A stretch of 64,000 nucleotides of DNA from Dehalococcoidia bacterium (GCA_034432935.1 DAOUBD010000012.1:17344-81343); one strand, 5' to 3'. Numbered from the stretch's first letter, positions 5,995 to 55,090 are shown. Notes: generated from the sequence alone by a model not told the origin. Translations and numbers: made by a program.

Positions 5995-6062
5995 TGTGCG
6001 GTATTGCCCTACACAATATGGGGCGCTACCGGACAGACGGGTTTGCAAAATGGCAATAACGT
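5995..6062 (+). promoter_or_regulatory. Tandem palindromic operator plus -10 box (site 1 of 7), pointing into non-coding DNA
   Basis: TGTGCGG-tattg-CCCTACA / TATGGGG-cgcta-CCGGACA / 21 nt / TAACGT. Same architecture as six other intergenic sites. Confidence 0.65.
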
Positions 6063-6166
6063 GGTAGATGCGTGCGCTCCCGTGCGCCGCAGCCAGGTAG
6101 TCAATGTGTGCCCCCAACCCTTGGCTCAGCCCTCCGACGGAGCGGCCAGCGGGAGTTGCCTCGCGC

Positions 6167-6240
6167 CGGCGGCCGGCGGTCCCAGCGGCGCCAATCCTAG
6201 CGTGCCTGTCTCAATAACGGGCGCCCACTGCCGGCCGCCG
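6167..6240. repeat. Long inverted repeat (14-bp outer stem plus inner GGCGCC stem) between convergent genes
   Basis: 6167-6180 CGGCGGCCGGCGGT pairs with 6227-6240 ACTGCCGGCCGCCG (one G-T). GGCGCC at 6187-6192 and 6220-6225. No U-tract on either strand. Confidence 0.7.
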
Positions 6241-6250
6241 CAACACGCCC

Positions 6251-6706
6251 CTACGAGCCTTCTCTCGCTGACTTCCACCCTTCCGTGATGGGAACGAAGT
6301 GGGACATCCGTAATCGCCGGCGCGCGAACTTCCACCGGCCGTTCTCGCGTATGTATTCGTCCTCGTACGCCCCCGCCCCAATCATCGCCTTGCCGTCTAC
6401 CGTGGCCCTGAGGTCCAGGTAGCAGGTGCCCCTCGCCCGGTCGCCGTCAAGCTCGATGACGTGGTTGTGGACAAAGGGCATGAACTCGCCCTGCAGCAGG
6501 CCCTGGTAAGATTCCACTAGGGCCTCCCGGCCGACGATTGGAGGACGGTCGTCCAGCTCCATGCTAGCGTCTTCCGCGAAAAGCTCTATGGCTCCTTCTA
6601 CATCTCGCCGCCAAATGCAGTGGGCGTAACGGATCGCGAGGTCCCGTATTGCTTCCCGGTCCCTTAGCTCTTGGACGGCTTGCTGGAGATCCTCCGGGCG
6701 CATCAT
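6251..6706 (-). CDS. SnoaL/NTF2-like fold protein (LinA/BaiE-like family)
   Basis: DREAIRDL..RY, HNHVIELDGDRARG, Y.DEY.R.NGRWKF..R pattern. Start at ATG 6706 or 6703. Confidence 0.85.
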   Translation of the reverse strand: MMRPEDLQQAVQELRDREAIRDLAIRYAHCIWRRDVEGAIELFAEDASMELDDRPPIVGREALVESYQGLLQGEFMPFVHNHVIELDGDRARGTCYLDLRATVDGKAMIGAGAYEDEYIRENGRWKFARRRLRMSHFVPITEGWKSAREGS

Positions 6707-6754
6707 GAAACCCTTTGCCTCTGGCCGGTGCGGTTTTCGCATCGGCCGGGGCCG

Positions 6755-6783
6755 AATCTACCCCCGGACCGCCCTTGCGTCAA
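6755..6783 (-). promoter_or_regulatory. Sigma70-type promoter for the SnoaL gene
   Basis: Minus strand TTGACG-N17-TAGATT. Confidence 0.6.
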
Positions 6784-6832
6784 GCCCGCGTGACCCGCGG
6801 TCTGCTACACTGAGTCGCCAGGAGGGACGAAG

Positions 6833-7252
6833 GTGAACGAAGCCCGGCTGAACATGGTCCAGCAGTCGCCCGTTTGGCAGACCCTCGGTGCTCAAGTCAT
6901 CGAGGCGAAAGATGGCCACGCCGTGGTCAAATACCGGGCCGGGGAGGACTGGCTGATACCCTCGGGCCGTGTGCAGGGCGGCTTTCTCGCCGCGATGATC
7001 GACTCCTGCATGGCGGCCGCGATAGTTGCCAGCCTAGCGCCAGGTCAGTGGCATACTACCATTGAGATGAAGGTGAACTACTTCCGCCCAGCACCTCCCG
7101 GCGGCTTTACCGGTCAATCCGAGGTGGTCTGGAAGGGGAAGAACATCGTTTATGCGGAGGCCACCCTGTCTCATGAAAGCGCAGGGCTCGTGGCCAAAGG
7201 CGTCTCGACATGTATGGTGCTACAGGACCGGAGCCCAGGCAGAGGGGAGTAG
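6833..7252 (+). CDS. PaaI-family hot-dog thioesterase
   Basis: GRVQGGFLAAMIDS...TTIEMKVNYFRP. GTG start after AGGAGG. Extended -10 TGcTACACT at 6803-6811. Confidence 0.9.
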   Translation: MNEARLNMVQQSPVWQTLGAQVIEAKDGHAVVKYRAGEDWLIPSGRVQGGFLAAMIDSCMAAAIVASLAPGQWHTTIEMKVNYFRPAPPGGFTGQSEVVWKGKNIVYAEATLSHESAGLVAKGVSTCMVLQDRSPGRGE

Positions 7253-7270
7253 GCCTGGCGCGCTTCTAGC

Positions 7271-8196: not shown

Positions 8197-8222
8197 CCTA
8201 CCTCCTTTGCCCCAACCCTTGT

Positions 8223-8981: not shown

Positions 8982-9181
8982 ATCATCCGCCTGCGTAGCA
9001 TCGCCAAGCAGGCGGCCCTCTTTCCACAGCTTGCGCGTCATATCCGGCCGCCACAAATGTCCCGTGTAACCGCTTCCTACGTCAAGCCGTCGGTGGTTGC
9101 GGCGTTGCCGTAGAATCCACTGTGCCGGCATAATAATCAGGGCGCTGGCCAAGGGCCCGGGGGCAACAGAATCGATAGCGC

Positions 9182-11575
9182 ATGACCAGTGACCTCAGGA
9201 GCGAGGGTCTCAGAATCCTCTCGGGCCTTCGGGTGGTGGAGATATCCGCGGATGGCAGCGCGGCCATGGCGGCGAAGCACTTCGCCGATTGGGGCGCCTC
9301 GGTAATCGTTTTGGAGCCGCCGGAGGGCACGCCCTTGCGTCAAGCCCCGCCCTATTATCCGACTAGCGATGGGGTCCGCAGTGCCACTTGGCAGTGGCTA
9401 TCCCGGGGCAAGACCTCTATCCGTGTTGGTCAGGGGATGCCGTTTTCGCCAGATGCTGCCGTGCGCCTCTGCCAATCCGTAGACGTGGTCCTATTCGAGA
9501 GCGGGATAGCAGCCGAGGTTCTCGGAGGCAACATCGACTCCATCCGATCCGCACTGGAGGGCAGGACTACCAGCGTCATCATCTCGCCAGCCGGGCTTGA
9601 CGGCCCATACGCGGGATATCGGGCCACTGATCTGGGCATCAACGCGCTGGGCGGTGTCATGAGCCTCCTGGGCGATCCCGGGCGGGAGCCTTTGCGGCCG
9701 GGGCCAGACCTGATGCCCCGGATCACGGGCGTCTTCGCCTTCGTCGCCGCCTTGATCGGGCTACGATACTGTCGCCAAGGGGGACCGCCGCAGTTCATCG
9801 AACTCTCGTCCCAGGCGGTCGCAGCCTCCGTCATCGTGCCTGCGTGGCTGGTCAAAAGCATGGCGGGGATCGAACACACGCGGCGAGGCAACACCTGGCC
9901 CATGGGGGTCTCCGAGTGCAAGGACGGCTGGATTGGCGTGCCGCCCCTGACCCCGACTCATTGGGATATGCTGTGCCACCTCATGGGGATCGCCGATGTG
10001 CTGGAACACCCTCAGGGCCGCGATATCAACTGGCGTATGCAGCATGCGCGGGAGCTGCATGAGCGCGTCCGCCCCTGGCTCATGGCGCGCACCCGGAGGG
10101 AGGTTCAGCAAGAGGCTCAGACGTACCGGCTGCCGGCGGCTCCGGTCCAGACTATAGACGAACGTCTCCAGTGCCCGCACCTGGCCGCCCGAGGCTTCTG
10201 GCGGGAGGCGGAGATAGACGGCAGGGTGGTGAAAGTCCCTCGTGTCACCTTCTCGGTGAAAGGCATCACGCCGATGGAGCGGGGCCCCCTCCGCGAGACG
10301 GGATACGTGGAAGTGGGGTCACCCCGGCGCGCTTCCGGCGCGGCGCCGGCCGGGCTTCCCTTCGCCGGACTGCGGGTCCTAGACCTAACATCCTTCTGGT
10401 CCGGCCCTTACGCCATGACCCTTCTCGCCGCGCTGGGCGCCGACGTGATCAAGATCGAATCGGCGCAACGGCCTGACCCATATCGGTACACCTGGGCCCC
10501 TTACGGGCGGGAGCGGTGGTTCGAGTTCGGCCCCCTGTGGGTCGATGCCAACTGCGGGAAACGGAACCTCGCCCTCGACCTCACCTCCGCCGAAGGCAAG
10601 TCAGTTTTTGAGCGCATGGTCACGCAAGCCGATATCGTCATCAGCAACTTCGCCAATCGCGTGATGCCGAACCTTGGCCTGACCAACGATCGCCTGCTGG
10701 AGATCAACCCCAGGCTCATCGCGGTGACGATGCCGGGCTACGGGCCTGGCGGCCCCTGGGAGGATTACGTTGGTTATGCCGTCGCCTTCGAGCAGCTGGT
10801 GTGCTCGTCCATGGTGGGCTATGCGGACGGGCCGCCTTCCTACGCTGGCGGCTTCTGTGATCCCCTGGTAGGCATGCACGCCGTCGCCGCCATAGAGCTC
10901 GCTCTGCGCTACCGGGAGACGACTGGTCGAGGCACCGAAGTTGAGGTTCCCCAGTGTGAAATCCTGGACAGCATATACGCGCCCGAACACATTGCGGTGC
11001 AGCACGGCGCTCCTGCGCCCTCCCGGTGCGGCAACCGTCATCCATCCATGGCCCCGCATAACGCCTACCAGGTGGCGGGCGACGACTGCTGGATCACCAT
11101 CTCGGTGGCCAGCGACGCCGAGTTCGCCGCACTGGCCCGTGTCCTTGGGCGTCCAGAGATGGCCGCCGATAGCAGGTTCGCTACAGCGGCGGCTCGCAAA
11201 GATAACGAGGCGGCGTTGGACGCTATCATCGCTGAAGCCGTGCGAAATCGCGACCAGGCGGAGTTAGAGAGGGAGCTACAGGCGGCCGGGGTGGCCGGCT
11301 GCCGCGTCAATAAGGCCTTTGCCTTGATGGATGACCCAGGTTTGCGCCATTTCGGTTTCTTTCAGGAGATCGAGCGGCCAGTCACCGGGCGCCATCCCCA
11401 GAAGACCTGGCCCTTCCGGTTTCCCTCGATTGACGCCAGCCACAAACGGCCGGCCCCCCTCTTGGGTGAGCATAATGCGGAAGTCCTCAAAGAGCTTGCC
11501 GGCCTGACGGAACCAGAGATACGTGGTCTGGCGGAGAAACGGATTATCGGCGAATCGCCACTGGCGGCGGTGTGA
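9182..11575 (+). CDS. Tandem CaiB/BaiF CoA-transferase, N-domain lacking the catalytic Asp
   Basis: Two domains. N-half reads DLMPRITG at the catalytic position; C-half reads GFCDPLVG. Confidence 0.9.
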   Translation: MTSDLRSEGLRILSGLRVVEISADGSAAMAAKHFADWGASVIVLEPPEGTPLRQAPPYYPTSDGVRSATWQWLSRGKTSIRVGQGMPFSPDAAVRLCQSVDVVLFESGIAAEVLGGNIDSIRSALEGRTTSVIISPAGLDGPYAGYRATDLGINALGGVMSLLGDPGREPLRPGPDLMPRITGVFAFVAALIGLRYCRQGGPPQFIELSSQAVAASVIVPAWLVKSMAGIEHTRRGNTWPMGVSECKDGWIGVPPLTPTHWDMLCHLMGIADVLEHPQGRDINWRMQHARELHERVRPWLMARTRREVQQEAQTYRLPAAPVQTIDERLQCPHLAARGFWREAEIDGRVVKVPRVTFSVKGITPMERGPLRETGYVEVGSPRRASGAAPAGLPFAGLRVLDLTSFWSGPYAMTLLAALGADVIKIESAQRPDPYRYTWAPYGRERWFEFGPLWVDANCGKRNLALDLTSAEGKSVFERMVTQADIVISNFANRVMPNLGLTNDRLLEINPRLIAVTMPGYGPGGPWEDYVGYAVAFEQLVCSSMVGYADGPPSYAGGFCDPLVGMHAVAAIELALRYRETTGRGTEVEVPQCEILDSIYAPEHIAVQHGAPAPSRCGNRHPSMAPHNAYQVAGDDCWITISVASDAEFAALARVLGRPEMAADSRFATAAARKDNEAALDAIIAEAVRNRDQAELERELQAAGVAGCRVNKAFALMDDPGLRHFGFFQEIERPVTGRHPQKTWPFRFPSIDASHKRPAPLLGEHNAEVLKELAGLTEPEIRGLAEKRIIGESPLAAV

Positions 11576-16862: not shown

Positions 16863-16995
16863 CGCCCGGTGACCTCCTCGTGCCGAAAACTGGCTGGTCC
16901 GCCCTAGATTCTATCGAGCCAGGCAGCTGTGGGCCAGGTTTTCCGACTCGTTCGGGGCGTGGACCCCCTTGCGATACCCCAGACAGGAGCCAATA

Positions 16996-17115
16996 GGTTG
17001 TGGGGCACCTATGCCCCCGCCTTCAGGCGGGTGTGGTGCAACTGACGCCGACACGAAACGCTGATCAGCCGGTTGTGGGGCACCTATGCCCCCGCCTTCA
17101 GGTAGGGGTGGTGCA
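16996..17115 (+). repeat. Two 45-bp direct repeats (3 mismatches) separated by a 30-bp unique spacer; each copy carries internal hairpins
   Basis: GGTTGTGGGGCACCTATGCCCCCGCCTTCAGG identical at 16996-17027 and 17071-17102, followed by CGGGTGTGGTGCA vs TAGGGGTGGTGCA. Period 75 bp. Hairpins GGGGCA-ccta-TGCCCC and CCCGCC-ttca-GGCGGG. Confidence 0.9.
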
Positions 17116-17160
17116 GGGAGGCCGGAGAGCCGCAGGGTCCGCCACGTTTCCTTCTCCGCG

Positions 17161-17189
17161 TTGACTCCCTCTGCGAGCCACTGTATCTT
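17161..17189 (+). promoter_or_regulatory. Sigma70-type promoter for the DsrE-like/crotonase operon
   Basis: TTGACT-N17-TATCTT. Confidence 0.6.
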
Positions 17190-17209
17190 CGTGTTCGGCG
17201 CATCACGCC

Positions 17210-22778: not shown

Positions 22779-22847
22779 AGTGTGGGCCAGTTTTGCAGGC
22801 CTGTCTGTCGGGTATCACCAGTAGGGCGTGTAGGGCAATACCTTACT
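22779..22847 (-). promoter_or_regulatory. Tandem palindromic operator plus -10 box (site 2 of 7), upstream of the 22721 crotonase operon
   Basis: Minus strand: AGTAAGG-tattg-CCCTACA / CCTACTG-gtgata-CCCGACA / 21 nt / CACACT. Confidence 0.65.
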
Positions 22848-25336: not shown

Positions 25337-25375
25337 CGGCTAGGATGTGGGGCTTTGCACGATTTTTCATGCCTC

Positions 25376-25444
25376 TGTAGGGCAAAGCCCTACACGGCTT
25401 GGGGCAGATACCCGACAGCACCCCCTACAAAACGCACATATAAT
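25376..25444 (+). promoter_or_regulatory. Tandem palindromic operator plus -10 box (site 3 of 7), upstream of the 25630 operon
   Basis: TGTAGGG-caaag-CCCTACA / CTTGGGG-cagata-CCCGACA / 21 nt / TATAAT. Confidence 0.8.
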
Positions 25445-25629
25445 CCTCTGTGGGCCTGGCGTGTCCCGATCTCAGGCTCCGGGAGCGGACCAACGCGCAG
25501 CGCTGAGTCCTGCCACCGAACTGTAGAGGATAGAAGTGCAGAATAGCCGCCAACGCCACCTCGGCCAACCCCCAGCGTCGCATGGAGCCGTACGCGAGGT
25601 TCTTGTTTTCCGTCTTCAGGAGGTAACGG

Positions 25630-26805
25630 ATGAACTTTAGGTTCAGCGAAGAGGAAGAGGCGTTCCGCCAGGAGGTGCGTGAGTTCATAGCTAAGGAGAT
25701 GACCGACGAAGTGCGCTCCACCTGGCTGGGAGGCCTCCTCGATACCCCGGCTCGCGTCGACTTCGTGACCAAGATGGCCAGGAAGGGCTGGCTGTCCCAG
25801 GGGTTTCCGGAAGAGTACGGGGGCACCAAGCAGACCATGCCTCTGGCCCAGTACATCCTCAACACAGAGCTCCACATGGCCCAGGCGCCCATAGTCGGCA
25901 AGAATTTGGGTGTCATAGTGAACACCCTCCTGCGCCACGGCAGTGAGAAGCTGAAGAAGGAGTTCATCCCCCGCATCCTACGCAACGAGATCCAGTGGGC
26001 ATTGGCCTATACGGAGCCTGAGGCTGGGTCGGATCTGGCCAACATGCAGTGCCGGGCCGTCCTCGATGGCGATGAGTTCGTCGTCAACGGCATGAAACGG
26101 TTCATTACGTCCGCTCACTTCTGCGATTATCTTTGGACTGGCGTGCGTACAGATCCCAACGCCAAGCCCAAGCAGAAAGGCATCAGCCTCCTAATAATCG
26201 ATGTGAAGACCCCCGGCATAACCATCACGCCCCTCTGGACCATCATCGGCGAGCGCACCAACGACGTCTACTTCGACAACGTTCGCGTTCCCAAAGACAT
26301 GCTCGTGGGAGAGCTGAACGAAGGGTGGCGCTACATAACTGAGGCCCTCACTTATGAACGTTTCACCATGGCCTCCGTCATCCCGACTATCCGCAAGTTC
26401 CAACAGTTCGTCGAATGGGTGAAGACCGCCGAAATCGACGGCAAACGGCTGAAGGATGACCCCGTCGTCCGCCGCAAGATCGCCCATGTCGCGGTGCTGG
26501 TGGAGATGGCCCGCATGCTAGACCTGCGTTGCATCTGCACCGCGGTCAAGCCGGGCTATGTCCCCTACATCGAGGCCATGATGAACAAGATGTGGGGCGG
26601 AATCGTCGAGACCGTGCTGAGCGACACCTTCCTGGATATCCTCGGTCCTTACGGCTACCTGTGGAAAGATAGGGAGCACGCTCCGCTCGACGGCAGTGTC
26701 GTAGACGACTACCTCTGGGCCGGTCACCAGCGCGTCGCAGCTGCTGGCGTCGACCTCTCGAAAAATACCATCGCCCGCCGCTACCTGGGGCTTCCCAGCG
26801 GTTAG
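25630..26805 (+). CDS. Acyl-CoA dehydrogenase, catalytic alpha subunit
   Basis: LAYTEPEAGSDLA, VNGMKRFIT, LTYER. Confidence 0.92.
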   Translation: MNFRFSEEEEAFRQEVREFIAKEMTDEVRSTWLGGLLDTPARVDFVTKMARKGWLSQGFPEEYGGTKQTMPLAQYILNTELHMAQAPIVGKNLGVIVNTLLRHGSEKLKKEFIPRILRNEIQWALAYTEPEAGSDLANMQCRAVLDGDEFVVNGMKRFITSAHFCDYLWTGVRTDPNAKPKQKGISLLIIDVKTPGITITPLWTIIGERTNDVYFDNVRVPKDMLVGELNEGWRYITEALTYERFTMASVIPTIRKFQQFVEWVKTAEIDGKRLKDDPVVRRKIAHVAVLVEMARMLDLRCICTAVKPGYVPYIEAMMNKMWGGIVETVLSDTFLDILGPYGYLWKDREHAPLDGSVVDDYLWAGHQRVAAAGVDLSKNTIARRYLGLPSG

Positions 26806-26846
26806 GTGAACTGCTGGAACCCATGCTGAGATAGGGGTCAACCGTT

Positions 26847-27983
26847 ATGGACATGGAATTTAGCGAAGAGCAGCTCAAGCTTATAGACACTGCCCGGCGC
26901 TTTCTGGAGAAGGAATCGCCCCTTTCTGCCGCCCGGGAGCACGAGAGTACGGAAACTGGGTTCTCTCTCGATCTGTGGCAGAAGATGGCCTCGCTGGGAT
27001 GGCTGGGGCTGCCCTTTCCGGAGGAGTTCGGTGGCTACGGGATGGGAAATGTGGACCTGGTCTGCCTGACCAAAGAGCTGGGCCGTGTGCTGTGCCCCAG
27101 CCCTTATATCCCGACCGTCGTCTTGGCCGGGGGAGCGATCCTGGCGGCGGGCAACGAAGACCAGAAGAGGGAATATCTGCCCCGCATCGCTGGCGGACAG
27201 CTCATCATCGCCTTCGCCCTTCAGGAAGCTAGCCGCTACTACGATCCGCGCGGCATCTCCACTCGCGCTACAGAGGTCGACGGCGGCTATGTCCTTAACG
27301 GCACCAAGATGTTCGTGGAGTTCGCCAACGCCGCAGACCGAATGCTGGTTGTTGCCCGCACCGCCGGCGCGCCTCCCTCGGCGGAGGGCGTCACCATGTT
27401 CCTCGTGGACGCCAAGACGCCTGGCATAACGATGCGCCCCTTGGGCACGATGGCCCGGGACAAGCAGTTTGAGCTGCGACTGGAGGACGTCAGGGTGTCG
27501 AAGGCCGACGTCCTCGGGCCCAGCGGCGGCGCCTGGCCGATACTGGAGGGTGTCATACAGCGGGGCGTCGTAGCCTTTGCCGGATACATGATTGGCGCCT
27601 CCGAGAAGATCCACTCTATGGCGGTCGACTTCGCCAAGCAGAGAGTACAGTTCGATAGGCCCATCGGCAGCTTTCAAGCCATCCAGCATTACTTGGCCCA
27701 GTCCATCACCGAGATCATCGGTGCCGACACCATGACCTTCTACTCCGCCTGGAGCCTGGACGAGGGGCTGCCCTCTCGCGAGATCGTGGCCAAGGTCAAG
27801 AGTCTGGCGGGCGATACCTACAAGAACGTATCGGCTCTGGGAGCGCAGATCTACGGCGGCATCGGCTTCAACGAGGATGTAGACACCACCCTGTTCCTGC
27901 GCCGTGGCAAGCAAGCTCAGCTCGCCATGGGTGACACGGGGTACTGGGAAGATATCATCGCCGAGGAGCTTCTCGACAAGTAG
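26847..27983 (+). CDS. Acyl-CoA dehydrogenase, partner beta subunit
   Basis: RVQFDRPIGSFQAIQH, QIYGGIGF. Adjacent to the alpha subunit. Confidence 0.9.
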   Translation: MDMEFSEEQLKLIDTARRFLEKESPLSAAREHESTETGFSLDLWQKMASLGWLGLPFPEEFGGYGMGNVDLVCLTKELGRVLCPSPYIPTVVLAGGAILAAGNEDQKREYLPRIAGGQLIIAFALQEASRYYDPRGISTRATEVDGGYVLNGTKMFVEFANAADRMLVVARTAGAPPSAEGVTMFLVDAKTPGITMRPLGTMARDKQFELRLEDVRVSKADVLGPSGGAWPILEGVIQRGVVAFAGYMIGASEKIHSMAVDFAKQRVQFDRPIGSFQAIQHYLAQSITEIIGADTMTFYSAWSLDEGLPSREIVAKVKSLAGDTYKNVSALGAQIYGGIGFNEDVDTTLFLRRGKQAQLAMGDTGYWEDIIAEELLDK

Positions 27984-27985
27984 CT

Positions 27986-29077: not shown

Positions 29078-29089
29078 GCCGGAGATCCC

Positions 29090-32832: not shown

Positions 32833-32836
32833 AAGC

Positions 32837-33253: not shown

Positions 33254-33290
33254 GGCGTGGCCCTCGCAGGCGCAGAGGAGAAGGTAGGAA

Positions 33291-34457
33291 GTGGAGTTCA
33301 GGGAAACGCCGGAGATGGCCAAGATCCGGAGCGAGATCCGGGAAGTTCTGGCCGAAGCTTTACCCTCTGACTGGCAGGGCAGCGGTTTTCTGCCTATGGA
33401 CGTGCGGCCAGAGCACATGGAGATCGCGCGCAACCTTGACCGCAAGCTCGCCTCTCGCCGGCTCCTGGCTCCCGCCTGGCCCGTCGAATACGGTGGGCGC
33501 GGCCTGACCCCCCTGGAGCAGTTCGCCCTCTTCGAAGAGCTGGGCTACGGGTTGGCGCCTCGTCTGACTACGGTCTCGGTGGACCTCGTGGGGCCAGTGC
33601 TCATCCACTACGGCAGCGATGAGCAGCGCCGGCGGCATCTTCCCGCCATCGCCAATGACGCCCAGGTGTGGTGCCAGGGTTTCAGCGAGCCAGAGGCTGG
33701 CTCGGACCTCACCAGCCTACGCACCAGGGCTGAGCGCCAGGGCGACGTCTACGTCATCAACGGCCACAAGATCTGGACGAGCATGGCCCACGTCTCTCAG
33801 TGGTGTATCCTTCTGGCCCGCACCGGCCCCCAGGAGTCGAAGAGCCGCGGCCTCAGCCTGTTCCTCGTCCCATTGGACGCGCCGGGCATCGAGGTCAGGC
33901 CCATCTGGGACGCTAGCGACGAGCACATGCTCAACGAAACCTTCTTCGATAACGTGCAAGTCCCCGTAGAAAACCTGGTGGGCGCCGAGAATGAGGGCTG
34001 GAAGTACGCCACAACCCTCCTGCAATACGAAAGGGGCGACGCGTTGCTGGTGGGCCAGTTCCGCCGCCTCCTGGACGATGTCGAGGCCCTTATCCGCCAG
34101 CAGGGGCGTTCACGGGCTGACGCCAGGGCTCTCCTGGCCCAGTGCGAGGTCGAGTGGCAGATCGGCCGGCTCTTCACCCTCCAGATCGTCACTATGCACC
34201 TGCGCGGCCAGATGCCGGACATGGAAGCCTCTGCCGTCAAGCTGTTCATGACCGAGGCGTACCAAAGGCTCGGTCATGTCTGCCTGCACCTCACAGGCCT
34301 CGCCGGCCTCCTACGCACTGGCGAACCGCGGGCGCTCCTGGGTGGCCGCATCGACCAGGCTGTCGTCGCCTCCACCGTAGGTACCATCATGGGTGGCACC
34401 TCGGAGATCCAACGGACCATCATCGCTACCCGGGGGCTCGGGCTTCCCAGGGGCTAG
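33291..34457 (+). CDS. Acyl-CoA dehydrogenase (alpha-type)
   Basis: CQGFSEPEAGSDLTSL, INGHKIWTS, LQYER, GGTSEIQRTII. Confidence 0.92.
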   Translation: MEFRETPEMAKIRSEIREVLAEALPSDWQGSGFLPMDVRPEHMEIARNLDRKLASRRLLAPAWPVEYGGRGLTPLEQFALFEELGYGLAPRLTTVSVDLVGPVLIHYGSDEQRRRHLPAIANDAQVWCQGFSEPEAGSDLTSLRTRAERQGDVYVINGHKIWTSMAHVSQWCILLARTGPQESKSRGLSLFLVPLDAPGIEVRPIWDASDEHMLNETFFDNVQVPVENLVGAENEGWKYATTLLQYERGDALLVGQFRRLLDDVEALIRQQGRSRADARALLAQCEVEWQIGRLFTLQIVTMHLRGQMPDMEASAVKLFMTEAYQRLGHVCLHLTGLAGLLRTGEPRALLGGRIDQAVVASTVGTIMGGTSEIQRTIIATRGLGLPRG

Positions 34458-34459
34458 GC

Positions 34460-35215
34460 GTGGAGATCCGTTTCGACGGCAAAGTGGCCCTAGTGACAGG
34501 GGCCGCCAGCGGCATCGGCCTTGAGGTCGCGCATGGCCTCGCCCGGGCCGGGGCGACCTTGGCCCTATTGGACCTTCCGGGCCCTGGCCTCGAGGGGGCA
34601 GCGCGTGGTCTGGAGGGCCCTAGCGGTGTTATTGTTCTGCGGGCCGATGTCACCGATCTGGCCGCTGTGCAGGCTTCAGCGGAAAAGGCTGCCGCGGAGG
34701 CCGGCGGCCTCGACATCGTGATAACCTGCGCTGGCCGGGCGATAACGGGTCCCTTTGCCGAAAGCGACCCCTCCTCGTGGCGCGATCTCTTGGAGGTGAA
34801 TCTGCTGGGCACTATGAACGTGTGTTACGCTGCCATCCCTTATTTGCTGGAGCGCGGCCGAGGGCGGATCATCACCATCGCCTCCGATGCGGCTCGCGTA
34901 GGGTCGGCCGGGGAGGCCGCCTACTCCGCCGCAAAAGGCGGCGTCATCTCCTTTACCAAGTCGCTTGCCCGCGAATTAGCCCGCCATAACGTGACAGTCA
35001 ACTGCGTCTCCCCAGGCCCCACGGACACGCCAATGCTCCGAACGGTGATGTCTGGTGACGAGGACTTGCTCCAAAAGCTAGTGCGGGCCACTCCTCTGCG
35101 CCGTTTGGGCACAGCCAAGGACGTCGCCTCAGCCGTCCTGTTCTTGGCCTCCGACGATGCCTCCCATATCACTGGGCAGGTGCTCAGTGTCAGTGGTGGC
35201 ATCACCATGGTGTGA
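34460..35215 (+). CDS. badH: SDR, BadH-like (2-hydroxycyclohexanecarboxyl-CoA dehydrogenase family)
   Basis: IASDAARVGSAGEAAYSAAKGG...SPGPTDTP...ITGQVLSVSGGITM closely follows R. palustris BadH as I recall it. GTG 34460. Confidence 0.7.
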   Translation: MEIRFDGKVALVTGAASGIGLEVAHGLARAGATLALLDLPGPGLEGAARGLEGPSGVIVLRADVTDLAAVQASAEKAAAEAGGLDIVITCAGRAITGPFAESDPSSWRDLLEVNLLGTMNVCYAAIPYLLERGRGRIITIASDAARVGSAGEAAYSAAKGGVISFTKSLARELARHNVTVNCVSPGPTDTPMLRTVMSGDEDLLQKLVRATPLRRLGTAKDVASAVLFLASDDASHITGQVLSVSGGITMV

Positions 35216-37228: not shown

Positions 37229-39649
37229 CTAGGACGCCCCCTGCGCCGGGTGGATCAGGTTCCACAGCCGGTTGGGCGAGGCGGGGACCTCGGTGGCCCG
37301 GACGCCCAGGGGAGCCAAGGCGTCGTTGATGGCGGCCATGATCGCCGCCGGCGCCGTGTTCATAGCCCCCTCACCCATGCCCTTAGTCCCCAGCGGCGTG
37401 AGCGGCGACGGAGTGACGATCACTGCTTTCTGCGTCATTGGCACCTCATGGATGGTGGGGATCAGGTAGTCCATGAAGGTCGATGTTAGTATCTGGCCAT
37501 CCTCGTCATATACGTACTCTTCGAGAAGCGTGGCGCCCACGCCTTGTGCTATGCCACCCTGAGTCATGCCCTCCACCACCGCCGGATTCAGGCGGGTGCC
37601 GCAATCATCGGCCACGTAGTACTTCAAGATGTCCACCTTGCCGGTGTCGGGGTCGATCTCCACCATCACCAGATGGCAGGCGTTGGCAGCGGTGAGGTAG
37701 CTCTTGGCACGCCCCTCCTCGTCCGGCATGTCGCGGTCAGGCGCCGTCCAGACGTAGGTGGCCTCGACCGATGGCTCCGTGCCGGGCGGCACGAGGTCGC
37801 TGCGGAAGAGTATGGTCCCCACAACGTCCCGAAGGGGCATCTGGTACTCGAGGTTGTTCTTCATACGCAGGACGCCGTCCATAAGTTCGACGTTGTCCTC
37901 CGTGGTCCTCAGGAGGAAGGCGGCGACCCGCACGAGCTTCTGGCGGATGATGTCCGCGGCCCCCAGCACTGCGCCGCTGAGGGCGACGGCCAACCGGCTG
38001 CCTCCCGGCCCGTAGTGCGGCGGCGCCGAGAGGGTGTCCTGGCAAACCACCTGCACGTCTTCCGGCCGAACCCCAAAGTAGTCTGCCAATATCTGGGCTA
38101 CGAAGGTATACTGCCCCTGACCTTCCAGGGCGAAGCCCACCCGCGCCACTATCTTCCCGAAGGCGTCAATGCTGACGGTGACGCCCTCCGGCAGGGCGGT
38201 GCCTCCCTGTTGACCGATGATATTGTATACGTTGTTGTTGAATACGCCCGGCTCTATGCTGTTGACGATGCCGATGCCCACCAGGCGGCCCTGCTTTCGT
38301 GCCTCGGCCTGCTCCTGACGCAGCCGCTGGTAGTCCGACATCTCCAGCACCTTGTTCAGGGCGGCCTCATAGTTCCCGCTATCGTACTCGTTACCGCTAG
38401 GGATCCTGTACGGGAACTTGTCGGGCGGTATGTAGTTCCGGCGCCGGAATTCGGCGGGGTCAAGGCCCAGTCCGCGGGCGGCTATGTCCATCATCTGCTC
38501 CAGGACAAAGTTGTGGGGCGGGGGACCCATCCCGCGGTACGGACTGGCCGGAGCCTTGTTGGTGCAGACGATGGTCAGATCGTAGGAGGCGCAGGGAATG
38601 GTGTAGCTGCCGGTGAAGGCGGCTAACGGCTTGGCCGCTCCGATGGCAGCGTAGCCCTCGGCTGTAGCGCCGATGTCGTCGACCAGCTTGACCTTGAAGC
38701 CGGTAACAATCCCCTCCGCGTTCACCGCCAGGGACGCCTCGTAGTGGCGGTCCCAAGCCTGGCTTCCGCCTGCTATGAGGTACTCCATCCGGTCCTCGAT
38801 CCACTTCACCGGCCGTCCGCCGGCCTTCCGTGAGAGAAGGGCCGCGATCTGTGTGCCACGCCCGCCGCCCTTGCCGCCGAAGCTGCCGCCATGGGGATGC
38901 GGGATTACCCGTACCTTGTTGGGGGCCAGGCCCAGCCCTATGGCCGCACCCAGGGCCATCAGCGATGGCGCTTGGAACGTGCCCCGGAGGGTGAGGCCTT
39001 CCTCCACGGGGTCCCATTGGGCGATAACTCCAAAAGTCTCCATCGGGTTGGCCCCCACCCTATGCCAGCGGAACTTCTCGGTGAAGACGTGGGCCGCTTC
39101 AGCGAAGGCCTTCTCCGTGTCCCCCCAATTGAAGACCCGGTGCAACATGACGTTGGTGCCGTTTTCCTCGAAGATGAGAGGGGCGCCTGGCTCCAGCGCC
39201 TTGAACGCGTCCATCACAACGGGCAGGGGCTCATACTCCACCCGTATGTGCTCCAGGGCATCCTCGGCGATGTACCTGCTGGTTGCCGCCACAGCGGCCA
39301 CTGGCTCGCCCACGAACCGCACCTTCTCTTCCGCCAGGCAGCGTGTGCCCCAGCCGGGCGGCGCCGTGCCGATGGGGCGAGCCCATCGCTTGGCGTCTTC
39401 GCCGGTAACTATGGCCACGACGCCGGGCAGGCGCGCGGCCTCCGCGATATCTATGCTGTTGATCCGCGCGTGGGCGTGGGGGCTGCGCAGGATGGCGCAG
39501 TGCAGCATCCCCGGCATCTGCACGTTATCGATGAACTCGGTGCGCCCCGTCAGAAGACTCGGGTCTTCCACCCGCTTCACCGGCTGGCCCACGTACCGCG
39601 GCTGGCTGGTGGGCAGCTCTTGCAGAGATCTCGGGATATTGATTGTCAC
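37229..39649 (-). CDS. Xanthine-oxidase-family molybdopterin-binding large subunit (not CO dehydrogenase)
   Basis: YVGQPVKRVEDP, RSPHAHARI, GGSFGGK, GTKGMGE (catalytic Glu). Active-site loop is PYRGMGPPP. GTG 39649 overlaps the upstream TGA. Confidence 0.92.
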   Translation of the reverse strand: MTINIPRSLQELPTSQPRYVGQPVKRVEDPSLLTGRTEFIDNVQMPGMLHCAILRSPHAHARINSIDIAEAARLPGVVAIVTGEDAKRWARPIGTAPPGWGTRCLAEEKVRFVGEPVAAVAATSRYIAEDALEHIRVEYEPLPVVMDAFKALEPGAPLIFEENGTNVMLHRVFNWGDTEKAFAEAAHVFTEKFRWHRVGANPMETFGVIAQWDPVEEGLTLRGTFQAPSLMALGAAIGLGLAPNKVRVIPHPHGGSFGGKGGGRGTQIAALLSRKAGGRPVKWIEDRMEYLIAGGSQAWDRHYEASLAVNAEGIVTGFKVKLVDDIGATAEGYAAIGAAKPLAAFTGSYTIPCASYDLTIVCTNKAPASPYRGMGPPPHNFVLEQMMDIAARGLGLDPAEFRRRNYIPPDKFPYRIPSGNEYDSGNYEAALNKVLEMSDYQRLRQEQAEARKQGRLVGIGIVNSIEPGVFNNNVYNIIGQQGGTALPEGVTVSIDAFGKIVARVGFALEGQGQYTFVAQILADYFGVRPEDVQVVCQDTLSAPPHYGPGGSRLAVALSGAVLGAADIIRQKLVRVAAFLLRTTEDNVELMDGVLRMKNNLEYQMPLRDVVGTILFRSDLVPPGTEPSVEATYVWTAPDRDMPDEEGRAKSYLTAANACHLVMVEIDPDTGKVDILKYYVADDCGTRLNPAVVEGMTQGGIAQGVGATLLEEYVYDEDGQILTSTFMDYLIPTIHEVPMTQKAVIVTPSPLTPLGTKGMGEGAMNTAPAAIMAAINDALAPLGVRATEVPASPNRLWNLIHPAQGAS

Positions 39650-40149
39650 GACGCCTCTCCTCCGGCCCGCGCCGAGCCCTGCATTTTGGCGGCCGCCAGG
39701 CGCACCGACTCCATGATGTCCTGGTAGCCAGTACAACGGCAAAGGTTGCCCCCTAGCATTTCGCGAATGTCATCGTCCGAGGGCCGAGGGTTCTCGTCCA
39801 AAAGCTCCACCACCGACATGATGAAGCCCGGTGTGCAGAACCCGCACTGAAGCCCATGGGCCTCCATGAAGGCCTCCTGGATCGGGTGTAGATGGCCGTC
39901 CGAGCTCAGTCCTTCCACCGTCATCACCTCTGCGCCGTCCGCCTGAACGGCCAGCATGATGCAGGAGCGCACCGCCCTGCCGTTCAGGATGACGGTGCAA
40001 GCACCGCAGACCCCGTGTTCGCAGCCAACGTGCACACCCCCAAGGCCGAGCTCGCTCCGCAGGAAGTCCGCCAGCGTGGTCCTCGGTTCCACGGACGCCT
40101 CGTGTGTGACGCCGTTCACGGTTAGCCGTATCTTTTGCGGTTCTACCAT
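39646..40149 (-). CDS. (2Fe-2S) small subunit (CoxS/CutS-like)
   Basis: GCEHGVCGACT, LQCGFCTPG, GNLCRCTGY. Confidence 0.95.
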   Translation of the reverse strand: MVEPQKIRLTVNGVTHEASVEPRTTLADFLRSELGLGGVHVGCEHGVCGACTVILNGRAVRSCIMLAVQADGAEVMTVEGLSSDGHLHPIQEAFMEAHGLQCGFCTPGFIMSVVELLDENPRPSDDDIREMLGGNLCRCTGYQDIMESVRLAAAKMQGSARAGGEAS

Positions 40150-40154
40150 TGCTC

Positions 40155-41039
40155 TCAGCCTCCGCTGGCCTGTGTTGCCCGCTGCGCCGCATCGGCCAGG
40201 GCCCGGCCAGCCATGGTCTTCGCTAGGTGGCGCCTGAAGGCCGCAGAGGCGTGGATATCTGAGATCGGCTCCTCGATCTCTCTTCCTACTTCCTCGGCGG
40301 CCGCTGCCAGGGCCTCTGGGCTGGGCTGCTGCCCCTTCAGCAGGGTCTCCGCTCTGGCGGCTCGGACCGGCGTCGGCCCGGCGCCGAAGATTACGAGCCG
40401 TGCGTCACTGCATCTGCCCCCTGGATCCAAGGTTAGGGCTGCAGCGGCGCCCGCCAGGGCGAAGTCGCCGTGCCGGCGGGATACCTCCCGGAACCCCCAT
40501 CCTGTCCGGGGCGGCAGGACTGGGAAACGTACTTCCGTCAGAATCTCGTCCGGCTCCAGGGCGGTCGTCAGGTAGGTTACGAAGAAGTCGGAGGCTTCGA
40601 TTAAGCGCTGCCCTTCATTGCTGACAGCGGTCATCTCTGCTCCCAGGGCTACGCAGACCGCTGGGAGCTCCGCCGCCGGGTCGGCGTGGGCGATGGAGCC
40701 GCACACCGTCCCGCGGTTCCTGATTTGCGGGTGTGCGATGAAGCGTACGGCTTCGGCCAGAAGTGGCTGGAGACGGCGCACGTCGGCAGATCGCTCCACC
40801 GCCCTGTGGCGCGCGCCTGCTCCGATGGCTATGCTACCGTTCTCGGGCCGTATGTAATCCAGCTCGCTGATGCGGTTGATGTCCACCAGGGCGGCCGGGC
40901 GAGCTAAACGCATGTTCAGAAGTGGCAGTAAGCTCTGGCCTCCAGCGAGTACTTTGGCCTCGCCTCCGTACTTCTCGAGGATCTCCGCCGCTTCTCGCAA
41001 TGAGGTAGGGGCGAAGAACTCGAAGGGCGGCGGTTTCAC
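40155..41039 (-). CDS. FAD-binding medium subunit (CoxM/CutM-like)
   Basis: MKPPPFEF, LAGGQSLLPLLNMRLARP, IRNRGTVCGS, DIHASAAFR. Confidence 0.95.
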   Translation of the reverse strand: MKPPPFEFFAPTSLREAAEILEKYGGEAKVLAGGQSLLPLLNMRLARPAALVDINRISELDYIRPENGSIAIGAGARHRAVERSADVRRLQPLLAEAVRFIAHPQIRNRGTVCGSIAHADPAAELPAVCVALGAEMTAVSNEGQRLIEASDFFVTYLTTALEPDEILTEVRFPVLPPRTGWGFREVSRRHGDFALAGAAAALTLDPGGRCSDARLVIFGAGPTPVRAARAETLLKGQQPSPEALAAAAEEVGREIEEPISDIHASAAFRRHLAKTMAGRALADAAQRATQASGG

Positions 41040-41209
41040 GGACGCACCTCCAACACCGTACCCGACACTATTGACCTTCTGATGTTCCTGTTCGCAGATA
41101 CCCTAGGTTATAGTCCAGTATGCGCCACCGGCGTGGCTAGGAGAACGGCCCGCCAGCCCCGCATGTCCGCGGCTCGGATCTGCCGGCTGTAGTCGCGGCA
41201 GAGAGCTAC

Positions 41210-41243
41210 CGGGGAAGGCGCCCTGCGCAGGGTGCCTTCCCCG
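41210..41243 (-). terminator. GC-rich hairpin 35 nt downstream of the substrate-binding-protein stop (terminator or mRNA-stabilising stem)
   Basis: CGGGGAAGGCGCCCTG-cg-CAGGGTGCCTTCCCCG, near-perfect inverted repeat with one G-T. No U-tract. Confidence 0.55.
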
Positions 41244-41277
41244 TCTGTCTCTTCTTCCCAGACAAGGCTCAGCAACA

Positions 41278-44392: not shown

Positions 44393-44461
44393 AGTGTAAG
44401 CGCGTTTTTCCATGGCGTCTGTCGGGCAGTTGCCCCACCACCTGTAGGGATTTACCCGACA
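44393..44461 (-). promoter_or_regulatory. Tandem palindromic operator plus -10 box (site 4 of 7), upstream of the SBP genes
   Basis: Minus strand: TGTCGGG-taaat-CCCTACA / GGTGGGG-caactg-CCCGACA / 21 nt / TACACT. The distal palindrome overlaps the 3' end of the upstream CDS. Confidence 0.75.
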
Positions 44462-49526: not shown

Positions 49527-49596
49527 AGTGTAGGGATCGGTTTTGCGGTCTGTCTGTCGGGCATCTGCCCGACAACGCGTGGGGCTTTGTATTACA
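49527..49596 (-). promoter_or_regulatory. Tandem palindromic operator plus -10 box (site 5 of 7), upstream of the LLM/KstD/CoxG operon
   Basis: Minus strand: TGTAATA-caaag-CCCCACG / TGTCGGG-cagatg-CCCGACA / 22 nt / TACACT. Confidence 0.75.
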
Positions 49597-49635
49597 AGCT
49601 CCTCTGGCTCGAAGCTTGCGCTGCGGTCGCGGGCA

Positions 49636-49665
49636 TTGACCGCTTGGCCAAACCCCTGCTAGCCT
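49636..49665 (+). promoter_or_regulatory. Sigma70-type promoter for the 49699 CoA-transferase
   Basis: TTGACC-N18-TAGCCT with extended TG. Confidence 0.5.
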
Positions 49666-49698
49666 GCCCATCCGGTAGGAGGATGATAGGAGGATGAG

Positions 49699-52531: not shown

Positions 52532-52541
52532 TGCTGATCTC

Positions 52542-53357: not shown

Positions 53358-53360
53358 CTG

Positions 53361-53663
53361 TCACCTCTCGTCTTGCCGGCGGACTGGCCGCGGATGGTTA
53401 GGCTCCGTGCCGTCCTTGAGCCACAGGTTGCCGGATTCGCACCACACCGCATCGTGCTCGTATCCTTCGGGCTTGCGGGTCAGGTTGACCATGAGATACC
53501 AGCGCCAAGGCGGGTCGCCATGGTCGATGAATTCACCGGTAAGCGTTCCGGTGAACTCCTGGCGGCTTGCCATGTGGGTGCCGGGCACGGCCTGGCCCCC
53601 GTCGCATTCGGCGATCTTGCCGGCCATCTCATGGTCGAAGCCGGGCCGGACAGGGTAGCTCAC
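53361..53663 (-). CDS. Small hypothetical protein (100 aa)
   Basis: Fills the gap between the NMO-family gene and etfB (14- and 3-nt spacers). GGAG upstream of GTG, ordinary protein composition, no family recognised. Confidence 0.7.
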   Translation of the reverse strand: MSYPVRPGFDHEMAGKIAECDGGQAVPGTHMASRQEFTGTLTGEFIDHGDPPWRWYLMVNLTRKPEGYEHDAVWCESGNLWLKDGTEPNHPRPVRRQDER

Positions 53664-53677
53664 GTTGGTGCTCCGGG

Positions 53678-54793
53678 TCAGCCGGCGGCGCCTACGGCAG
53701 GATCACCCAATAGGCTTTCGAAGGCCTCCTGGGCCTCGCCCACCATGTCGAAGATGATCTGGCGCACGGGCTTCATCGAGTTCACGAAGTGGACCCCTTG
53801 GCCCGCCGCCTCCGTCATGAAAGAGGTGATGTTGTTCTCCATGACGGACTGTTGGACCTCGGCGAACAGGAGAAGCTGGTATGGCGCCGGCAACGGCTCC
53901 GGCGCCCCCGGCGCCTCCCACTCTTCGTGCCATTGGCTCCTGGTGGTGCGCATCGTGAACCCCGATATGCAGCGCGACCAGACGGCGTCCTCGGTGTCGG
54001 CGTTGAGAATGATCTCCTTGATGGGCATCTCCTTGTCCGACTCACGGGATGCCAGCCACACGGTCCCGCACCAGACCCCATCGGCACCCAGGGCCAAGGC
54101 TCCGGCCAGATGCCTGCCCGTGGTCACCCCGCCAGCCGCGATCACCAGCTTGTCGCCCGCCAACTCCCGTACCAGCGGCACTATGGAGAAGGTGCCGATG
54201 TTGCCGGTGTGGCCGCCGGCATCGAAGCCCTGGGCCACGATGGCGTCGACACCGGCGTCGAGTTCCCGTTTGGCTTGGCGGGGCTTGCCCACCATGCCCC
54301 ATAGCATTACGCCACGCGAGTGAGCGGCCTCGATGATGAAGTTGGGGCTGCCCAATCCGAAGGCCAGCACTGGCACCCGCTCCTCCAGGACCACATCTAC
54401 CTGCTTGCGAGGCACATCTTGGGTCATCCATCCGAGCTGGTAAAGCTGAGGCGGGTTCCGAGGTTCTGGAATGTTGTGCCGGCGCTTCATGTCCTCGATG
54501 AACTTGCGGTGCGTCTCGGGAATCTGCGCCCGGAGGTCGTCGATGGTGCCCGAGGGAGGCACCGAAGCTGGTAACACCAGGTCGATGCCGAAGGGCTTGC
54601 TGCCTATGCGCTCTCGGATCCATTTGATATCGGCAGCGATCTCATCGGGCGACCGGTGGGTCTCGCCCAGGACGGCAAAGCCGCCGGCGTTTATGGCCGC
54701 CACCGCGACGTCTTTGCAGTGGGTGAAGGCGACTATGGGGAACTCGATCCCCAGGGTGTCGCATAGCCTTGTGTGAAGCGGGTCTTTCGCCAC
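53678..54793 (-). CDS. Nitronate monooxygenase-family FMN protein (FabK/IpdC-like enoyl reductase possible)
   Basis: LCDTLGIEFPIVAFTHC, GFDAGGHTG, AAGG...G, GVWCGT. Confidence 0.88.
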   Translation of the reverse strand: MAKDPLHTRLCDTLGIEFPIVAFTHCKDVAVAAINAGGFAVLGETHRSPDEIAADIKWIRERIGSKPFGIDLVLPASVPPSGTIDDLRAQIPETHRKFIEDMKRRHNIPEPRNPPQLYQLGWMTQDVPRKQVDVVLEERVPVLAFGLGSPNFIIEAAHSRGVMLWGMVGKPRQAKRELDAGVDAIVAQGFDAGGHTGNIGTFSIVPLVRELAGDKLVIAAGGVTTGRHLAGALALGADGVWCGTVWLASRESDKEMPIKEIILNADTEDAVWSRCISGFTMRTTRSQWHEEWEAPGAPEPLPAPYQLLLFAEVQQSVMENNITSFMTEAAGQGVHFVNSMKPVRQIIFDMVGEAQEAFESLLGDPAVGAAG

Positions 54794-54861
54794 GGCGGGC
54801 CTCCTACATTTGATCGTTTCCAGATGCCGGCCCGAGGTTCCCCTGGGGCAGCGCCGAGGCC

Positions 54862-54930
54862 ATTATCCGTCGCAGAAAACTGTCCTGTCAGTCGGGCAGC
54901 GCCCCACAATGGGTGGGGCCTAACCCGACG
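54862..54930 (-). promoter_or_regulatory. Tandem palindromic operator plus -10 box (site 6 of 7), upstream of the NMO-etfBA operon
   Basis: Minus strand: CGTCGGG-ttagg-CCCCACC / TGTGGGG-cgctg-CCCGACT / 22 nt / GATAAT. Confidence 0.7.
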
Positions 54931-55021
54931 GCCGGCGGCCACGGGCGCTTCGGTAATCTGGAACGCTGCAGCCCTTATACCAGCCGGATGCAAGATCGCA
55001 TAGGCAAACGGTCATCACCTG

Positions 55022-55090
55022 TGTAGGGGAAAGCCTGACACGACATACCGGGAACGCCCGACAGACACGACGCCAGGCTGGCAAAACAAT
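55022..55090 (+). promoter_or_regulatory. Tandem palindromic operator plus -10 box (site 7 of 7), upstream of the 55139 operon
   Basis: TGTAGGG-gaaag-CCTGACA / degenerate left arm-CCCGACA / 21 nt / AACAAT. Confidence 0.65.

Follow-up and report, generated by a model that had tools for sequence, protein, structure and literature searches.

A 64,000-nucleotide stretch of the genome of a Dehalococcoidia bacterium (GCA_034432935.1 DAOUBD010000012.1:17344-81343, hereafter the window) contains seven intergenic segments in which two neighboring palindromes, denoted here as the tandem operator, stand at a fixed distance upstream of a promoter -10 hexamer. The evidence supports reading the seven sites as a single promoter-linked cis-regulatory family and not as random palindromes. 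From the arrangement of these elements, we consider it probable (at roughly 0.6) that the tandem operator is bound by two cooperating dimers of one helix-turn-helix (HTH) regulator, whose most likely role would be activation.

The seven segments had been described in an initial annotation of this DNA, and their layout, coordinates, and strands were borne out when the sequence was printed in the claimed orientation. Each begins with a 19-bp dyad (TGTMGGG-N5-CCCKACA), followed by a second dyad, 21-22 nt of linker, and a -10-like hexamer:

Site 1, plus strand: distal dyad 5995-6013 (TGTGCGGTATTGCCCTACA), proximal dyad 6017-6035 (TATGGGGCGCTACCGGACA), -10-like TAACGT 6057-6062.
Site 2, minus strand: distal dyad 22829-22847 (AGTAAGGTATTGCCCTACA), proximal dyad 22806-22824 (CTACTGGTGATACCCGACA), -10 CACACT 22784-22779, -35-like CAGACA.
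Site 3, plus strand: distal dyad 25376-25394 (TGTAGGGCAAAGCCCTACA, a perfect palindrome), proximal dyad 25399-25417 (TTGGGGCAGATACCCGACA), -10 TATAAT 25439-25444.
Site 4, minus strand: distal dyad 44443-44461 (TGTCGGGTAAATCCCTACA), proximal dyad 44420-44439 (GGTGGGGCAACTGCCCGACA), -10 TACACT 44398-44393, -35-like CAGACG.
Site 5, minus strand: distal dyad 49578-49596 (TGTAATACAAAGCCCCACG), proximal dyad 49555-49574 (TGTCGGGCAGATGCCCGACA, perfect), -10 TACACT 49532-49527, -35-like CAGACA.
Site 6, minus strand: distal dyad 54912-54930 (CGTCGGGTTAGGCCCCACC), proximal dyad 54890-54908 (TGTGGGGCGCTGCCCGACT), -10 GATAAT 54867-54862.
Site 6 -35, minus strand: CTGACA 54891-54886, with an 18-nt spacer to GATAAT.
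Site 7, plus strand: distal dyad 55022-55040 (TGTAGGGGAAAGCCTGACA), proximal dyad 55045-55063 (ATACCGGGAACGCCCGACA), -10 AACAAT 55085-55090, -35-like CAGACA.

Over the family, the dyads (19-20 bp) can be read as nGTnnnG-N5-CCnnACn. The distance from distal end to proximal end was 22 bp at sites 1 and 6 and 23 bp at sites 2, 3, 4, 5, and 7, and the dyads present four half-sites at ~11.5-bp intervals. At all seven sites, 21 or 22 nt separate the end of the proximal dyad from the -10 hexamer, and this linker often contains GCAAAA or a T-tract; at site 1, GAC and then an A-tract lie between the proximal dyad and TAACGT. The proximal half had been called nearly invariant, which agrees with our counts: CCCGACA was found at five of the seven sites, and GAC stands directly after this half at six.

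A position weight matrix (PWM) was built from the 14 dyads of the window and scanned as a tandem pair, a check that the initial annotation had suggested. The scan recovered exactly the seven loci in the window (plus site 4 read in reverse), and no match was found in any of 200 dinucleotide-preserving shuffles. With leave-one-out PWMs, each held-out site ranked within the top 1-13 of ~256,000 strand/spacing positions. In addition, the exact 10-mer CCCGACAGAC occurred four times against 0.225 expected. Loose matching of single palindromes (≤3 mismatches) was not above chance, indicating that the evidence lies in the composite layout. A strict pattern combining the distal right half, the proximal right half with GAC, and ASACTG at fixed gaps retrieved three window sites and their orthologs and had no match in 80 unrelated loci. 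At a relaxed threshold, the tandem motif had no match in 1.30 Mb of loci from other taxa, including more distant Dehalococcoidia, around genes for the F420-type luciferase-like oxidoreductase (LLM) that is encoded downstream of site 5, and there were no copies of the motif in 17 kb of window flanks. Dehalococcoidia loci with the LLM cluster that lack the motif include L018, L031, and L074. A literature search on the half-site strings returned only primer and aptamer noise.

All seven sites are intergenic; six are oriented in the sense direction and precede a start codon by 40-190 nt. Sites 2 and 4 occupy co-directional gaps, sites 3, 5, 6, and 7 divergent gaps, and site 1 a convergent gap; the start codons downstream of sites 2-7 have Shine-Dalgarno sequences. 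The targets, with gene content from Pfam scans of all substantial open reading frames (ORFs) of the window, were as follows:

Site 2 target, minus strand: enoyl-CoA hydratase (22721-21816), CoA-transferase, enoyl-CoA hydratase, and acyl-CoA dehydrogenase, down to 18560.
Site 3 target, plus strand, 25630-35215: two acyl-CoA dehydrogenases, MaoC-type hydratase, fused CoA-transferase, thiolase-like protein with DUF35, acyl-CoA dehydrogenase, and SDR.
Site 4 target, minus strand, 44245-41278: two Peripla_BP_6 solute-binding protein genes.
Site 5 target, minus strand: LLM (49467-48406), two KstD-like flavoproteins, and an SRPBCC protein, to 44452.
Site 6 target, minus strand, 54793-50913: NMO-like reductase, 100-aa protein, ETF beta, ETF alpha, and PHP protein.
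Site 7 target, plus strand, 55139-59574: two CoA-transferases, enoyl-CoA hydratase, and CoA-transferase.

Six operons had been named for the seven sites. Sites 2-7 indeed precede operons, whereas site 1 has no gene downstream. The name 'CamK' for the site-7 operon found no support in these scans; the operon codes for an enoyl-CoA hydratase and three CoA-transferases of family III.

Sites 2 and 4 come immediately after same-strand genes, and the two halves of a dyad could pair into a 7-bp stem, features that would suit palindromes acting as RNA hairpins (in termination, processing, or stability) in read-through transcripts. Such a role is highly improbable. At the divergent gaps, the dyads lie upstream of both predicted starts and so would be untranscribed; no T-run follows the dyads, terminator scans of two gaps placed no terminator at a dyad, and searches of the window and the site-1 region against Rfam gave no match.

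The sites are also conserved in relatives. LLM homologs at 89, 85, and 74% identity, together with that of a Dehalococcoidia species representative (87%), lie on syntenic contigs; after the species representative, the next LLM relatives were ≤64% identical. The tandem element was found at the orthologous positions of sites 4, 5, 6, and 7 in relatives with 74-89% identical LLM (site 4 in L085, L086, and L087; site 5 in L005, L085, L086, and L087). Site 1 has an ortholog in an 86%-identical relative (L116), where the distal dyad is the perfect palindrome TGTGGGG-TATTC-CCCCACA. When the divergent gap between the NMO-like reductase and CoA-transferase genes was aligned from four genomes, the only two conserved blocks were the operator-promoter units of sites 6 and 7, and the sequence between them was unalignable; at site 7, GCAAAACAATGTGGCAAGA was invariant in the four genomes.

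The compiled set comprised 21 sites, seven from the window and 14 orthologous (L005, L085, L086, L087, and L116). Invariant positions were the distal GT (positions 2-3), CC (13-14), and AC (17-18) and the proximal CC.GAC.G, while the central spacers of the dyads and the linker varied freely. Dyad-to-dyad spacing was 22-24 bp, and the distance from the proximal end to the -10 hexamer was 21-22 nt in 19 of the 21 sites. The two exceptions were site 1 and its ortholog, at which the automated -10 pick was AATAAC at 19 nt, compared with TAACGT at 21 nt in the initial annotation. The distal dyads had on average 4.8 complementary pairs of seven. By this comparison, the tandem elements are a phylogenetic footprint, in which half-sites, spacing, and -10 hexamer are kept while spacers drift. 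Within these data, the element is functional and specific to the lineage.

Site 1 lies between a fused CoA-transferase gene (plus strand, ending at 5971) and a SnoaL-like gene (minus strand, 6251-6706), and no protein-coding gene of any length was found downstream of it in this convergent gap. The site is followed by a conserved non-coding stretch:

6063-6250 (12501-12688 in L116), plus strand: candidate small RNA, or carrier of a 37-codon ORF at 6104-6217.

The 155 nt after the site-1 hexamer (6063-6217) were ~92% identical between the window and L116, while the third codon positions of three neighboring genes were only 59% identical. The 37-codon ORF is present in both sequences, and its third positions were 89% identical, suggesting a constraint on the nucleotides and not only on the peptide. 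The predicted fold of the stretch was not better than those of shuffled sequences (z = -0.89), and a few substitutions keep predicted pairs (G-U to G-C, and one GC to UA) in this comparison of two sequences only. The stretch 6063-6250 is a candidate small RNA that would be driven by the site-1 promoter and run convergent with the SnoaL-like gene.

The palindromes resemble repetitive extragenic palindromic (REP) and REPIN sequences with a GTAG head in being short, G+C-rich, and extragenic and in containing GTAG/CTAC (the core reads GTAGGG...CCCTAC). The convergent gap of site 1 and the start of sites 2 and 4 within ~10 bp of a preceding stop codon could also be expected of selfish repeats of the REP/REPIN or miniature inverted-repeat transposable element (MITE) type that are intergenic by chance. 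The initial annotation had argued against random REP insertion, an argument that position, orientation, and orthologous conservation uphold. Unlike such repeats, the sites have a fixed polarity and register to the -10 hexamer in seven of seven cases and precede genes in the sense orientation in six, and their copies share functional positions only, not flanks. Orthologous copies are kept in place where third codon positions are only ~59% identical, down to 74% LLM identity, and show no presence/absence polymorphism. Neither a Y1-transposase (RAYT) domain in the window nor further copies in its 17-kb flanks were found. Furthermore, the position of site 1 before a candidate small RNA removes the only REP-like feature of the set. 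An origin as selfish repeats is extremely unlikely.

It had also been stated that no -35 box is present. However, a -35-like hexamer, cAGACa, was found 17-18 nt upstream of the -10 hexamer at sites 2 and 4-7, with three to four of six consensus matches at sites 2, 4, 5, and 7 (CAGACA/CAGACG) and five of six at site 6 (CTGACA). The GAC after the proximal dyad falls at the -35 core position, so the statement was inaccurate. The -35 position was poorer at site 1 (only GGACAG/GACAGA, upstream of AATAAC, itself 2 nt upstream of TAACGT) and at site 3 (only ACAGCA/CAGCAC). The site 6 variant CCCGACTGAC yields CTGACA-18-GATAAT, which matches the consensus at 10 of 12 positions and was reported by an independent promoter scan as sigma-70-type. 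The promoters of sites 2, 3, 4, 5, and 7 have only 7-8 of 12 matches and site 1 has a poor -35, which makes all but site 6 sub-optimal. In contrast, motif-free promoters of the same lineage scored 9-10 of 12 by scan (TTGACG-17-TATATT and TTGACG-17-TAGATT), and that of a motif-free operon containing a PadR-family gene has, as read by eye, a consensus TTGACA -35 and a TATA-rich -10, suggesting that the housekeeping sigma factor of the lineage uses standard elements. Each segment can thus be read as a putative sigma-70-type promoter with a mostly weak cAGACa -35 and a -10 of the type TAsACT, GATAAT, or TATAAT. In the 21 sites, the overlap between the proximal dyad and the -35-like hexamer is 2 bp at most, and the -10 is left free. 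For a start 6-8 nt past the hexamer, as deduced from the -10, the dyads would be centered at about -43 and -66, which is compatible with the class II-type activation geometry proposed earlier.

The most invariant parts of the promoters are CCCGACAGAC and the hexamer, which lie a fixed distance apart, and CCCGACAGAC plus TAsACT might be taken for the recognition sequence of an alternative sigma factor, with no separate regulator and with dyads that are incidental. We find this very unlikely. Both elements have twofold symmetry, which sites 3 and 5 show in perfect palindromes and which points toward binding by dimeric proteins; no sigma footprint extends to the distal dyad at -66, and hexamers spaced 17-18 nt from cAGACa are of the sigma-70 type.

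We propose a single putative HTH regulator whose gene lies neither in the window nor in its 7-10 kb flanks. It would bind as a tetramer of two cooperating dimers, one at about -66 and the other at about -43, on one face of the helix and 22-23 bp apart. The promoter-proximal dimer would abut the -35 hexamer (with the 2-bp overlap) and help RNA polymerase to bind, in a class II or lambda cI/PRM-like manner. Cooperative binding of two dimers fits the presence of two dyads on one face, the strict -10 register, and an operator that stops at a weak -35. The expected outcome, in response to a putative inducer, would be the co-induction of uptake proteins, the F420-LLM/KstD-like operon, ETF, two beta-oxidation-like modules, the CoA-transferase operon, and the conserved non-coding transcript. 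One putative regulator would probably switch the whole island on together.

Several points weigh against this proposal. Binding at the dyads is deduced from their symmetry and layout, as the transcription starts are from the -10 hexamers, and site 1 has no protein-coding target. The fixed register could be due in part to descent of the promoters from one duplicated cassette. Repressors (TetR, GntR, MarR, IclR) often govern catabolic pathways of CoA-thioesters, and 19-bp operators in tandem are a classical arrangement for repressors such as TetR. Site 6, a good promoter by itself (10 of 12), and site 3, with a perfect TATAAT, could fire unaided and would suit repression too. The alternative is that a repressor of the TetR/MarR/GntR/IclR type, released by a CoA-thioester of the pathway, occupies the tandem operator and blocks the access of sigma region 4 or of the C-terminal domain of the alpha subunit (alpha-CTD) to the -35 region, the regulon being de-repressed. 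The 2-bp overlap of the proximal dyad with the -35-like hexamer would allow this, and a TetR gene lies 6 kb from a homologous LLM cluster in a gammaproteobacterium, a case that is not informative for this lineage. However, the operator ends at the edge of the -35 in all 21 sites and leaves the -10 and the start region free, it keeps its distance to the -10 to within 1 bp, a precision that repression does not call for, and most of the promoters are weaker (7-8 of 12) than the motif-free ones described above. We consider repression somewhat unlikely.

The activator proposal can be compared with known systems. At OR1/OR2, two dimers of lambda cI bind cooperatively, and the proximal one, near -42, contacts sigma region 4 at the weak -35 of PRM. 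The sites studied here likewise have paired dyad operators (~23-24 bp apart in lambda) with the proximal one abutting a weak -35. However, lambda operators are 17 bp long, have another sequence, include a third operator, and serve a phage switch, and no cI/Xre-type gene was found here. DevR/DosR, a response regulator of the NarL/LuxR family in Mycobacterium tuberculosis, binds cooperatively and activates a multi-operon regulon. Its Dev boxes are similar in being 20-bp GGG...CCC palindromes in tandem, about two helical turns apart, with the proximal one overlapping the -35. Unlike the Dev box consensus TTSGGGACTWWAGTCCCSAA (GGG-N8-CCC), the dyads described here have GGG-N5/6-CCC with TGT/ACA ends, and no gene with a GerE domain was found in the window or its flanks.

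LysR-type transcriptional regulators (LTTRs) such as BenM/CatM and OxyR activate catabolic operons from a recognition binding site (RBS) near -65 and an activation binding site (ABS) near -35 to -45. The sites at about -66 and -43 (deduced from the -10) and the four half-sites, as for an LTTR tetramer, are similar. However, there is no T-N11-A core (positions 4/16 are M/K, and the T/A pairs stand at N13 and N17), no divergent LTTR gene (usual, not obligatory), and the most invariant element is the proximal right half and not the distal RBS. LuxR/TraR promoters share a ~20-bp dyad, the lux box, centered near -42.5 and a poor -35. Unlike them, the sites described here lack the CTG-N10-CAG signature, their outer triplets being TGT/ACA at 13 bp apart; lux boxes are usually single, and no LuxR-family gene or autoinducer synthase was found nearby. 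MalT recognizes short repeats without symmetry rather than 20-bp dyads. The regulon signature formed by the seven operator-promoter units is real, conserved, and specific to this lineage, and would be of an already known type, that of transcription-factor operators in a class II-like position.

No transcription-factor gene had been recognized in the 64 kb, and Pfam likewise detected no DNA-binding regulator domain in any window ORF. There was no HTH_1 or LysR_substrate match among the window ORFs, and the uncharacterized 100-, 149-, 68-, 143-, and 327-aa proteins had no DNA-binding domain match. A GerE/LuxR gene was found neither in the 64 kb, the 7-kb left flank, and the 10-kb right flank nor within 10 kb on either side in relatives, which leaves the earlier LuxR/MalT assignment of the putative regulator without support here. 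The gaps and leaders at 16863-17209, 25445-25629, and 5972-6250 held no plausible ORF for a hidden small regulator.

Among the genes of the left (7.2 kb, L003) and right (9.8 kb, L001) flanks, the only regulator candidate was the PadR-family gene, 2.2 kb left of the window (L003 4382-5059), which we rejected. Its orthologs always travel with their own operon (68-71-aa protein, PadR, DUF35, YbaK-like, thiolase, and PHP), which adjoins nuo genes and not the island in a 72%-identical relative (GCA_040960315.1), and its own promoter is of the TTGACA-17-TATAAT-like consensus type, with A/T-rich dyads, and has no tandem motif. These dyads (ATGTTATATAATAC...) are found in the promoter region of the PadR operon (L003 5060-5460, L091 9610-10000), whose first ORF, of 68-71 aa, is conserved, and are probably the autoregulatory operator of PadR.

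Outside this lineage, the strict pattern matched 23 loci in JGI metagenomes, about 20 of them independent. Most were chance matches or low-G+C tandem-repeat arrays; for instance, L093 1533-1897 and L098 2754-3049 are ~23-24-bp arrays of CCTGACAGACTGTCC(G/T)CCCACCA and were rejected as unrelated. None of the 23 matches belonged to the Dehalococcoidia lineage, in a collection that evidently lacks the L085 contig. At six loci, the unforced distal left half fits the family at p ≤ 0.012, with 0.25 expected by chance. Four of these six (L095, L097, L106, and L109; G+C 0.47-0.56) precede genes for a CusB-type membrane-fusion lipoprotein and an RND pump, and the ATG of the membrane-fusion protein lies exactly 6 nt after the hexamer, which suggests a leaderless mRNA and supports the -10 call. 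On the unrelated contig L106, genes for a NarL/GerE response regulator and a histidine kinase lie 4 kb from the look-alike site, a proximity that is a hint at best. Lineages other than these Dehalococcoidia may share the architecture. We consider it quite unlikely that the composite element is the signature of an undescribed, widely distributed activator system instead of a quirk of one lineage, with control of a small RNA in Dehalococcoidia as well.

The window as a whole is a gene island for fatty-acyl-CoA/steroid-like breakdown. It corresponds to bases 70977-134976, reversed, of the 195-kb contig CAYRWL010000001.1 in assembly GCA_964428025.1, very probably of an uncultured member of the Dehalococcoidia (Chloroflexota). 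Sixteen genes in the 64 kb encode family III CoA-transferases (CoA_transf_3), of which three are fused doubles; homologs of the latter are called 'BbsF-like' or 'CaiB-like' in some sources:

3566-5971, 9182-11575, and 29090-31678, plus strand: fused double family III CoA-transferases of ~800-860 aa, with two CoA_transf_3 stretches each.

Acyl-CoA dehydrogenases, enoyl-CoA hydratases, thiolase-like and DUF35 pairs, MaoC-type hydratases, SDRs, ETF, the NMO-like reductase, two Peripla_BP_6 binding proteins, and a Liv-type permease are also encoded. The LLM is a TIGR03617-type F420-dependent luciferase-like oxidoreductase with the two KstD-like flavoproteins alongside. Directly downstream of the two binding-protein genes, and syntenic in all relatives, are the genes of a molybdoenzyme:

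37229-41039, minus strand: xanthine-dehydrogenase-family molybdoenzyme with three subunits (FAD; 2Fe-2S, 39646-40149; large).

This enzyme may resemble AtcABC, which acts as a steroid hydratase/dehydrogenase in anaerobic steroid degraders. A G+C-rich hairpin without a T-run (GGGGAAGGCGCCCTGCGCAGGGTGCCTTCCCC, 41195-41245) closely follows the second binding-protein gene and may serve as a stabilizer or terminator ahead of the molybdoenzyme operon.

An Extra single palindrome of the operator type was found next to site 3:

25346-25364, minus strand: single palindrome AATCGTGCAAAGCCCCACA, PWM score 15.6.

It ends 9 nt upstream of the -35 of the TTGACG-17-TATATT promoter (25336-25308, from the promoter scan), which serves the divergent CoA-transferase genes at 25269-22856.

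Other repeated elements were observed in the window. A 45-nt unit, GGTTGTGGGGCACCTATGCCCCCGCCTTCAGGCGGGTGTGGTGCA, occurs twice on the plus strand, at 16996-17040 and 17071-17115, with no further copy in the window or any fetched locus. The two copies are 93% identical and spaced 75 bp apart, and the gap that contains them separates an enoyl-CoA hydratase gene from a divergent 149-aa DsrE-like ORF. Each unit contains two overlapping palindromes (GGGGCA-N4-TGCCCC and CCCGCC-N4-GGCGGG); its left part, TGTGGGG, resembles an operator half-site, and the unit does not score with the model. The word GTCAAGCC lies at 6770-6815 upstream of a 4HBT thioesterase gene, whose -10 is also TACACTGAG, and a second copy at ~9070-9090 precedes the fused CoA-transferase gene that begins at 9182. 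L116 retains both copies, and at 6775-6786 the word forms the dyad CTTGCGTCAAG; it may be a second regulatory motif. On a Logan contig (L090, SRR24079482, 1-4262) of a near-identical strain or assembly, with a 99% identical PadR, the fused CoA-transferase is cut to 488 aa and adjoins acetone-carboxylase-like and CoA-transferase genes that in the reference contig lie beyond the right end of the window, and site 1 is absent. Either the island has undergone a large deletion or rearrangement there, or the assembly is chimeric.

Such Dehalococcoidia are uncultured, and their control of transcription is almost wholly uncharacterized. One operator type over seven transcription units in 50 kb marks the genes of one pathway, comprising uptake, F420-dependent and flavin oxidoreductases, ETF, and beta-oxidation-like modules rich in family III CoA-transferases, and the finding flags a candidate regulatory RNA inside a catabolic island. 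The tandem operator is a ready bait in the search for the regulator and its inducer and offers a compact design for an inducible promoter. If it is true that the architecture recurs across phyla, it would point to an unrecognized regulator family.

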